Shown piece by piece: positions 12,979 to 24,059 of a stretch of 41,775 nt of DNA. Below the pieces are notes generated by a model that was given only the letters and a program-made list of their open reading frames with translations, was not told the origin of the DNA and searched no databases. The DNA comes from a virus (taxonomy: Duplodnaviria; Caudoviricetes). Every line of letters starts with the position of its first letter. Positions within the stretch are counted from its first letter, which is position 1. The DNA lies in the IMG/VR virus record IMGVR_UViG_3300038393_000403, positions 1 through 41,775 of that record; one strand, given 5' to 3'. The position numbers and the translations under genes were made by a program.

Positions 12979-13236
12979 TTACGCGGCTTCCTTTTCGAGA
13001 CGCCCGGTGGCGACATAAGTAGGCGGCCAAAATCCCTCGGGGGATTCCTGGCGCACCGAGACATCGGATATCGGTTCGCCGATGGCCTTCATGAAGTGCT
13101 CGAAGGCCGGGCCGAGCTTGGCGAACATCTCTTCCTCGGTGTGAGCGTGGACCATAAAACCCTTCAAATCCTCGCTCATTGCAGCGAGCAGGCCGGTTTT
13201 TTTGTGCTGCATAACGTGAATTTTGATTTCGGGCAT
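12979..13236 (-). CDS. HicB-like antitoxin-fold protein
   Basis: 'GLLAAMSEDLKGFMVHAHTEEEMFAKL..AFEHFM...GEP' follows the HicB N-terminal pattern; no DNA-binding C-domain. Confidence 0.65.
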   Translation of the reverse strand: MPEIKIHVMQHKKTGLLAAMSEDLKGFMVHAHTEEEMFAKLGPAFEHFMKAIGEPISDVSVRQESPEGFWPPTYVATGRLEKEAA

Positions 13237-13317: not shown

Positions 13318-13332
13318 GTTCCGTGTGTGTTC
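13318..13332. promoter_or_regulatory. Alphaproteobacterial LexA (SOS) box
   Basis: GTTC-cgtgtgt-GTTC, an exact GTTC-N7-GTTC match, in an intergenic region. Confidence 0.7.
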
Positions 13333-22683: not shown

Positions 22684-22734
22684 GTTATGGCACGCTATGG
22701 CGTGTCACGCAAGCAAGAAAAACGCTATAGCGTG
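22684..22734 (-). promoter_or_regulatory. PL promoter with two operators (OL)
   Basis: Minus strand TTGCGT-N17-CATAAC (22712 to 22684); near-palindromes CACGCTATGGCGTG (22691-22704) and AACGCTATAGCGTG (22721-22734). Confidence 0.8.
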
Positions 22735-22825: not shown

Positions 22826-23221
22826 CTACTGAACGCTTCGGTCCAGTAATTCGCGAATGCCGGTCATCTGCTGATCTAGATCGCGGAACTGTTCCGGCAA
22901 AAATGTCAAATCGACGTGTATGTCCCCGCGTAGAGTTATCCTCCACGCCAATCGGCCATCGGCAGACATCGAAGATGTCATCCCTATTACCTCAAGCGCC
23001 TGCGTCCGATGCCCCGCCGACGCCGGGAGGCTGGCACGAAGCGCAGTGGCTTCACCCTGTATGGCCACGATTAAGGCCGGAACAATGGCGGGATCGATCT
23101 CGATAGCGTAGGCTTGGCCGTCCTCACCGGTAAAGAGGATGTCAACGGAGTTGCGCTCAGTGTTTGCGGTGCTGCCGCTAACCGCCACAAACCGCGGGGC
23201 CTTGCGAACATCTATTGTCAT
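22826..23221 (-). CDS. Hypothetical protein in the immunity region (rex-like position)
   Basis: GGAGGGG RBS, AT-rich upstream region, own terminator; between cI and OL. Confidence 0.7.
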   Translation of the reverse strand: MTIDVRKAPRFVAVSGSTANTERNSVDILFTGEDGQAYAIEIDPAIVPALIVAIQGEATALRASLPASAGHRTQALEVIGMTSSMSADGRLAWRITLRGDIHVDLTFLPEQFRDLDQQMTGIRELLDRSVQ

Positions 23222-23361
23222 TACCCCTCCACGCCCGCTCTAATCGCGGCACCATTTGCGAACTTGAATTTCATCTTCACGATTTTCGAAACATATATTT
23301 TGGGAGTTTCTTTAATTTTAGGATTCTGATCCTTGAATTTCTAACTACGTTCTGATTGCAT

Positions 23362-23376
23362 GAACGAATAGGGAAC
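23362..23376. promoter_or_regulatory. Alphaproteobacterial LexA (SOS) box
   Basis: Exact GAAC-gaatagg-GAAC; second one-mismatch box TTTC-taactac-GTTC at 23338-23352; TTGAAT -35-like element at 23333-23338. Confidence 0.75.
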
Positions 23377-23389
23377 GTGGGGCGCAATC

Positions 23390-23545
23390 GTGTACGATCT
23401 GCTGGCACTATTCGACGAATGGAGAGGCCTTAGCCCCGGGGACCGGCGGCTGGCTCTTGACCACCTGATTTTGCTCTCAAAGCGCGAAAAAAACGATAAG
23501 CCTCAGCCCGCAATTCCGGGTCAAGGCTCGCGACCACCCGGATAA
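23390..23545 (+). CDS. Candidate LexA-regulated antirepressor peptide, antisense to the repressor 3' end (not in the ORF track)
   Basis: GTG start 13 bp after the LexA box; MYDLLALFDEWRGLSPGDRRLALDHLILLSKREKNDKPQPAIPGQGSRPPG*; L-x-P-x-x-R-x-x-A pattern shared with the repressor C-terminus. Confidence 0.55.
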   Translation: MYDLLALFDEWRGLSPGDRRLALDHLILLSKREKNDKPQPAIPGQGSRPPG

Positions 23546-23774
23546 ATTCATCGTCTTCTGGCGTCCTTTCGTGGCCGGTCAACACGTACATGGCCGAAGC
23601 GCTGCCGAGCACGTTTAGGATTGCGAGAAACCGATCCACGGTCGGCCGCTTGCCGTTCCGAACCATCTGCTGGACGTAGTTCGGCCCACAACCAGCGGCC
23701 TGGCTGATCGCTTTCATATCGCGACCGTCCTTCTCGATCATCTCAACGAATCGCGAGTACCAATCCTTATTCAT
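23430..23774 (-). CDS. CI-like XRE-family repressor lacking an S24 autopeptidase domain
   Basis: HTH 'MKAISQAAGCGPNYVQQMVRNGKRPTVDRFLAILNVLG'; 114 aa from ATG 23774; divergent from the cro-like gene. Confidence 0.85.
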   Translation of the reverse strand: MNKDWYSRFVEMIEKDGRDMKAISQAAGCGPNYVQQMVRNGKRPTVDRFLAILNVLGSASAMYVLTGHERTPEDDEFIRVVASLDPELRAEAYRFFRALRAKSGGQEPAAGPRG

Positions 23775-23787
23775 GCGGAACTTGTAA

Positions 23788-23854
23788 CACGCTATCAGCA
23801 TGGGCGGAGCACGTTATAGCGTGTCTTGACCAGCACGCTAAAGCGTGTTAGGTG
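23788..23854 (+). promoter_or_regulatory. OR operators and PR promoter
   Basis: CACGTTATAGCGTG (23810-23823), CACGCTAAAGCGTG (23834-23847), degenerate CACGCTATCAGCATG (23788-23802); TTGACC-N17-TAGGTG (23826-23854). Confidence 0.8.
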
Positions 23855-23861
23855 ACGGTTC

Positions 23862-24059
23862 ATGCGAAATGATCTCCTCACCGATATCGAGAAATTCATG
23901 CAGGCCAACGGCATCGGCCCGCACCGATTTGGCATCCTCGCAGTAAAGAACGGTCGGCTTGTCGATCGGCTCCGCGATGGGCGCCGCATCTGGCCCGAGA
24001 CTGAAAAGCAAATCAGAGACTTCATGCGCTCCCGGTCAAAATCGCGGAGAGCGGCATGA
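23862..24059 (+). CDS. Cro-like transcriptional regulator
   Basis: 65 aa 'LLTDIEKFM...IGPHRFGILAVKNGRLVDRLRDGR...TEKQIRDFM'; divergent from the repressor. Confidence 0.8.
   Translation: MRNDLLTDIEKFMQANGIGPHRFGILAVKNGRLVDRLRDGRRIWPETEKQIRDFMRSRSKSRRAA

Follow-up and report, generated by a model that had tools for sequence, protein, structure and literature searches.

SinI–SinR is a chromosomal biofilm switch under Spo0A control, with its two genes in tandem. The closest known system to the locus analyzed here is AimX–AimC of Bacillus extended arbitrium phages (phi106 family). According to the accessible part of the preprint (bioRxiv 10.1101/2025.11.23.689978), aimX is a 29-aa ORF behind a LexA site and overlaps the end of the gene for the short repressor AimC in antisense; the AimX–AimC heterodimer blocks DNA binding, and the authors liken the pair to SinI–SinR. 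A broader group, comprising Gifsy GfoA/GftA/GfhA, 186 Tum and N15, inactivates a non-cleavable repressor by means of a LexA-repressed small protein, as described in the accessible text of PMC3121763.

The locus studied here resembles each of these systems in part. As in AimX–AimC, as far as that system has been described, a small ORF behind a LexA site runs antisense to a short helix-turn-helix (HTH) repressor gene at its 3' end. As in the Gifsy, 186 and N15 systems, the repressor lacks an S24 autocleavage domain; the genes of the Gifsy antirepressors are situated outside the immunity region in the available part of PMC3121763, whereas the mini-gene here overlaps cI. SinR has an HTH domain with a two-helix C-terminal hook, a build that CI may share, and SinI is a small protein mimicking the oligomerization domain.

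The basic design has thus already been shown in Bacillus AimX–AimC, and the new elements are an alphaproteobacterial family, a detectable similarity between peptide and CI, a fixed tail-to-tail geometry and LexA-less variants. In contrast to AimX–AimC, box and hosts are alphaproteobacterial, the overlap is 116 nt rather than the 30 nt given in the accessible part of the preprint, and the hairpins of peptide and repressor are similar in sequence, which is not reported for AimX in that part (bioRxiv 10.1101/2025.11.23.689978). Heterodimer binding has been demonstrated there and is predicted here. The arbitrium genes aimR and aimP were not found upstream of the mini-gene, where a 131-aa ORF occupies the opposite strand and no long plus-strand ORF is present. 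Because it lacks these genes, we regard the locus as working like AimX–AimC without being a member of that system, which suggests that the AimX-type layout has arisen, without arbitrium, in a second phylum. Literature searches outside subscription papers found no such module described for alphaproteobacteria. Short, non-self-cleaving repressors occur in many alphaproteobacterial prophages, and the mini-gene is a specific candidate for their induction route, usually missed by annotation.

The immunity region and its antisense mini-gene

The window (the whole stretch analyzed, 41,775 nt) is an entire virus record and represents a temperate phage, with matches to integrase, endolysin, terminase, portal and major head proteins among 37 scanned ORFs. 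A recheck of the sequence upheld the positions that the earlier note had assigned to cI, both boxes, the GTG ORF and its 116-nt overlap with cI, and placed the TTGAAT element at 23333–23338. The divergent cI/cro pair spans 23430–24059 (Table 1).

Table 1. Features of the immunity region in the window.
Feature	Position	Strand	Reading or basis
cI, short CI-like XRE repressor, 114 aa	23430–23774	−	HTH domain 1–66 and C-terminal hairpin H72–82/H86–103
Antisense mini-gene (candidate antirepressor, 51 aa); GGGG upstream of the GTG start	23390–23545	+	Open reading frame
Exact LexA-type box GAAC-N7-GAAC, GAACGAATAGGGAAC	23362–23376	.	Ends 13 nt before GTG
Second box, one mismatch, TTTC-N7-GTTC	23338–23352	.	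Overlaps −35 of minus-strand promoter-like site; not generally conserved
Putative promoter TTGAAT-17-TTGCAT, weak −10	23333–23361	+	Inferred by eye; ends right before exact box
cro-like gene, 65 aa, divergent from cI	23862–24059	+	First gene of rightward early operon, inferred from position
Two ACGCT-N2-AGCGT palindromes, cI/cro gap	23811–23846	.	Likely CI operators
Two further ACGCT-N2-AGCGT palindromes, ahead of leftward early operon	22692–22733	.	Likely CI operators
131-aa gene, family unassigned	22826–23221	−	Between leftward operators and LexA box

CI had been read as a 114-aa protein without an S24 domain, and this was confirmed: translation gave the length, the Pfam search returned a weak HTH_3 match and no S24 domain, and the AlphaFold2 model (pLDDT 88) consists of an HTH domain followed by helices 72–82 and 86–103. 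Among the matches listed, SinR (1b0n_A) was the only near-full-length fold match to this model (Z 6.8, rmsd 5.0, 100 residues aligned), with a Z in the range of common helical arrangements. Foldseek returned no match to the CI model at E ≤ 0.001, neither CI nor 25 peptides matched the SinI/SinR dimerization family in Pfam at E ≤ 1, and no SinI chain occurred among 24 PDB sequence matches. The ACGCT-N2-AGCGT palindrome (≤1 mismatch) occurs five times in the window, against 1.57 expected and a count of five reached by 2 of 100 shuffles; because four of the five either lie between cI and cro or precede the leftward operon, these sites are likely CI operators. The 131-aa ORF (22826–23221) had no Pfam match; a near-identical phage (L001) carries a different gene at this position, which is therefore a variable slot.

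The motif GTTC-N7-GTTC, which the earlier note had taken for the alphaproteobacterial LexA site, is described as such in the accessible text of PMC3323433 and also lies upstream of Gemmobacter lexA. Exact boxes are at chance level in the window (2 found, 1.31 expected, 2 reached in 39/100 shuffles), and the box gains its significance from relatives rather than from the window alone. A promoter scan recovered no plus-strand sigma70 site at its stringency; it reported a minus-strand promoter-like site (23343–23315) overlapping the second box. The other exact box in the window (13318–13332) lies ~80 nt ahead of an 85-aa ORF on the minus strand (12979–13236; weak DUF1902 match, E 0.037), which is followed by a 68-aa ORF; these possibly form a second SOS-controlled unit, e.g. 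a toxin–antitoxin pair.

In its AlphaFold2 model, the mini-gene peptide forms a hairpin of helices 2–12 and 16–36 with a disordered tail. The two similar segments, previously described as encoded by largely different DNA, proved to have none in common: the peptide segment occupies 23408–23476 (+) and the CI segment 23478–23546 (−), abutting tail to tail. Searches with the peptide against Pfam, PHROGs and PDB sequences gave nothing specific, and the best ESM Atlas feature score (0.84) led solely to hypothetical clusters. The expectation that gene callers would miss the ORF held for the window version, which was absent, together with five other phage and prophage versions tested, from ~15 billion called proteins; it failed for the orthologues in Bartonella, which are annotated as hypothetical proteins. 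The mini-gene is also unannotated in a Roseicitreum plasmid and in Agrobacterium phage Atu_ph08, whose accessible description (PMC6630229) makes no mention of this ORF and reports that UV induction of lysogens has so far failed.

Conservation of box, peptide and frame

Viral, genome and metagenome scans yielded 80 loci; counted together with the window, 71 were distinct (10 duplicates dropped). Further loci came from annotated phages and plasmids and from two 401-genome samples, with L092 and L126 removed as duplicates. With 43 chromosomal Bartonella loci set aside, the set comprised 79 loci, namely 62 with a CI of ≤135 aa and 17 with longer HTH proteins, several of which have S24-like tails by eye and some of which are unrelated fusions. 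A peptide was called when its ungapped PSSM score exceeded the null 99th percentile.

An exact GTTC-N7-GTTC box lies within 200 nt past the cI stop in 21/62 short-CI loci versus 0/17 long ones, against a background of 7 boxes in 190,833 nt (0.007 per 200 nt). Antisense peptides above threshold were found in 34/62 short-CI loci versus 0/17 long ones, a count that is partly circular because 23 of the 62 trained the PSSM. The 37 held-out loci included four with a box and nine with a peptide; three of these four boxed loci also have a scoring peptide (Atu_ph08, the Roseicitreum plasmid and L127). The helical-hairpin ORF keeps the same relative frame in 20/21 boxed loci, and other antisense frames exceed the PSSM threshold in 2/62 short-CI loci. 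The 21 boxed loci represent 18 clusters at 70% CI identity, and their boxes, which occur in both orientations, have 19 different sequences. Joint conservation of box, start codon and frame, which had been set beforehand as a refutation test, was borne out. The remaining boxed locus, POI1126, has an annotated gene (gp72) behind the box in another frame; with no significant similarity (hhalign 0.9%), it was rejected as a homologue and is a positional analogue only.

In two relatives (L064/L065), LexA box and mini-gene are separated by an inserted gene of 81 aa, coded on the mini-gene strand (−313 to ~−70 from the cI stop), and the box is pushed to −393/−391, still ahead of the mini-gene. That the box stays in front despite the insertion argues that it governs the mini-gene direction; from its layout, the insertion appears to make a two-gene SOS operon. 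A rival idea is that the box serves the leftward 131-aa gene and that the ORF is a shadow of cI. The minus-strand promoter-like site at 23343–23315 would suit that idea, which is nevertheless largely refuted and which we consider scarcely credible: to the left of the box, the boxed loci have unrelated DNA (≥5 shared 11-mers in 5/210 pairs), the conserved hairpin is encoded opposite the variable tail of cI or outside cI, and the Bartonella mini-gene is under coding selection. The window box itself may act in both directions.

Judging from the distribution of boxes, not every member of the family is under LexA control. No exact box lies within 200 nt in 14 of the 34 peptide-bearing short-CI loci, nor in any of the 43 Bartonella loci, and 27/62 short-CI loci lack both the box and a scoring peptide. 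Among new loci from the 401-genome samples, the exact box was found in 0/29 of the Pleomorphomonas order and 1/17 of the Gemmobacter order; on these counts, the window's subfamily shows a strong LexA link, which is rare in distant subfamilies.

Selection, transcription and wiring of the Bartonella copy

The cI gene and its antisense mini-gene also lie in a chromosomal phage remnant of 43 Bartonella genomes (L018–L061), where the pair was retained after the flanking phage genes decayed. Selection was estimated by pairwise NG86, in which pairs are not independent, on 41/43 loci (L038 and L059 excluded for length). The mini-gene starts with ATG in 41/41 and its frame is open in 40/41, while the five other frames carry stops in 40–41 of 41 loci. 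Omega outside the cI overlap was 0.24 (hairpin 0.18), compared with 0.84–1.29 upstream; the CI N-terminal domain had 0.04. The antisense ORF is a real, conserved, mostly unannotated protein-coding gene under purifying selection in Bartonella.

Stranded RNA from one run matching the B. koehlerae locus (2890/2985 reads at ≥99%) covers the mini-gene strand of this boxless lineage at a depth of ~105–165 versus 8–45, with strand direction checked on neighbouring genes including an rpoD-like gene. The antisense transcript is broad and its reads continue through cI, exceeding sense reads over the cI 3' half (~160–200 vs 30–58). Together with the conserved convergent geometry, this coverage speaks for a reading in which a LexA-controlled antisense transcript is the main effector, lowering cI mRNA by RNA pairing or polymerase collision, and the peptide is secondary. 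We hold this to be improbable, given purifying selection on the protein outside the overlap and given that, in the accessible part of the preprint, AimX start-to-stop mutants lost the effect whereas overlap recoding did not abolish it (bioRxiv 10.1101/2025.11.23.689978). The earlier note had allowed convergent transcription a part in lowering cI mRNA, and this part is weakened because antisense RNA mattered little in AimX–AimC, as far as described.

The Bartonella copy is wired differently, with an exact LexA box in 0/43 loci although lexA is present in both genomes tested. Instead, a CI-operator-like ACGCTTTAGCGT site, matching the site upstream of cI, ends ~30 nt before the mini-gene ATG and lies ~147 nt past the cI stop. 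From this arrangement, the Bartonella CI may repress its own antagonist in a self-contained double-negative switch. The proposed antirepressor role is also a candidate function for a hypothetical gene pair kept in >40 Bartonella species. A role as regulator of BaGTA (brr/bgt) was considered and rejected, as the copy sits between the dcw cluster and rpoD and the B. henselae CI orthologue BH11470 is non-essential in TnSeq (PMC5496983). For the neighbour of BH11470, BH11460 ('phage related protein'), the donor z-score for BaGTA is −4.6 despite a position outside the BaGTA cluster (PMC5496983).

Likeness of the peptide to CI and the proposed mechanism

The resemblance of the peptide to the CI C-terminal domain, noted before from a single alignment, was recovered at the profile level, and in this the candidate antirepressor parallels SinI, although the motif is generic. 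The peptide profile matched the CI profile with a probability of 81.8% (hhalign), and the peptide core matched the CI C-terminus at 93%, versus 0.25% for the N-terminal domain and 13% for the reversed core; none of 200 column shuffles reached the core score, and profiles from disjoint locus halves gave 54–74%. With a peptide-only PSSM, the hairpin of CI exceeded the null 99th percentile in 27/37 held-out short CIs versus 1/17 long ones, and the AlphaFold2 hairpins of peptide and CI match. The hairpin motif had 46 matches in 1.84 billion proteins (28 of them DUF3106 repeats, only one an HTH_3 protein) and is generic. Cognate-specific mimicry was not detected: a peptide resembled its own CI no more than it did other CIs (n = 30, p = 0.43). 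The complex prediction for CI(1–105) with peptide(1–36), both as alignments, scored 0.21 against a mark of 0.32 and counts neither way.

The hairpin-coding arms meet tail to tail; their spacing is 7 nt in 16 of the 28 scored loci and −5 to 25 nt in 28/28, a count that excludes L004, L005, L011, L058 and L074 because the search window truncated them (peptide PSSM scores 19–32 on rescoring). Because the arms abut in this way, each folded part lies opposite the disordered tail of the other gene or outside it. This geometry weighs against an SOS-induced peptide with another target (host LexA or RecA, cell division, another element's repressor), whose CI likeness would be that of a common hairpin. 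The generic motif, the absence of cognate bias and the LexA-controlled DinI homologues of Gifsy prophages (accessible text of PMC3121763) speak for such a target; besides the geometry, the restriction of the peptide to short CIs (0/17 long) and its retention with cI in Bartonella after neighbouring phage genes decayed speak against it. We give this alternative a small chance, the largest among the rivals considered.

The mini-gene probably codes for an antirepressor under LexA repression, which would stand in for a CI subunit at the C-terminal oligomerization hairpin. Conservation, coding selection, the occurrence of the box with short CIs only, profile similarity and antisense RNA in one Bartonella run were observed. 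We infer LexA binding, induction by damage, binding of the peptide to CI and an effect on lysogeny. In a lysogen, host LexA on the box over the transcription start would silence the mini-gene. DNA damage leads to RecA-stimulated self-cleavage of LexA. The peptide would then be made and its hairpin (H2–12/H16–36) would pair with that of CI (H72–82/H86–103), and CI oligomers would leave the ACGCT-N2-AGCGT operators, setting off the early operons. The antirepressor would thereby substitute for the autocleavage domain missing from CI.

It is very improbable that the peptide binds CI yet stabilizes or retunes it as a co-repressor or scaffold. A homologue of the hairpin could join CI oligomers, and the Bartonella mini-gene is transcribed without a LexA box; however, a damage-inducible stabilizer would give a non-cleavable repressor no induction route, and the known C-terminal mimics, SinI and AimX, inhibit.

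A tentative and rather doubtful further reading for the antirepressor concerns its origin. An inverted duplication of the cI 3' end would have given rise to it, producing a protein-level palindrome, a cassette with swappable input and a general route to an off-switch. The 7-nt spacing of the arms (16/28 loci), with the disordered tail of each gene over the folded part of the other, would be a trace of this event. Host LexA would serve as the input in phages; in the domesticated copy of Bartonella it would be a CI operator, which would yield a double-negative bistable switch. The duplication is unproven because no DNA-level inverted repeat is evident between the arms (identity 0.33 in the window, 0.24–0.46 over 28 loci). 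If true, it would offer a general path by which non-cleavable repressors gain a matched off-switch. As a search rule, the antisense strand at the 3' end of short cI genes should be inspected.

Other arrangements at or around such genes were noted in passing. Phage Yong-M2-251 (L125) has an exact box at −207, ahead of an unrelated ~85-aa antisense ORF that overlaps the end of its 130-aa CI and may be another type of antirepressor; its alphaproteobacterial box is at odds with the recorded cyanobacterial host. Five loci of a distant short-CI subfamily (L137–L140, L143) have, at the 3' end of cI, an antisense ORF that is conserved but different; by eye, it follows ATCACAAGTGAT-like palindromes and lacks a LexA box. 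In three loci (L134–L136), the same HTH family makes up the N-terminal part of a fusion on ~850-aa open frames.
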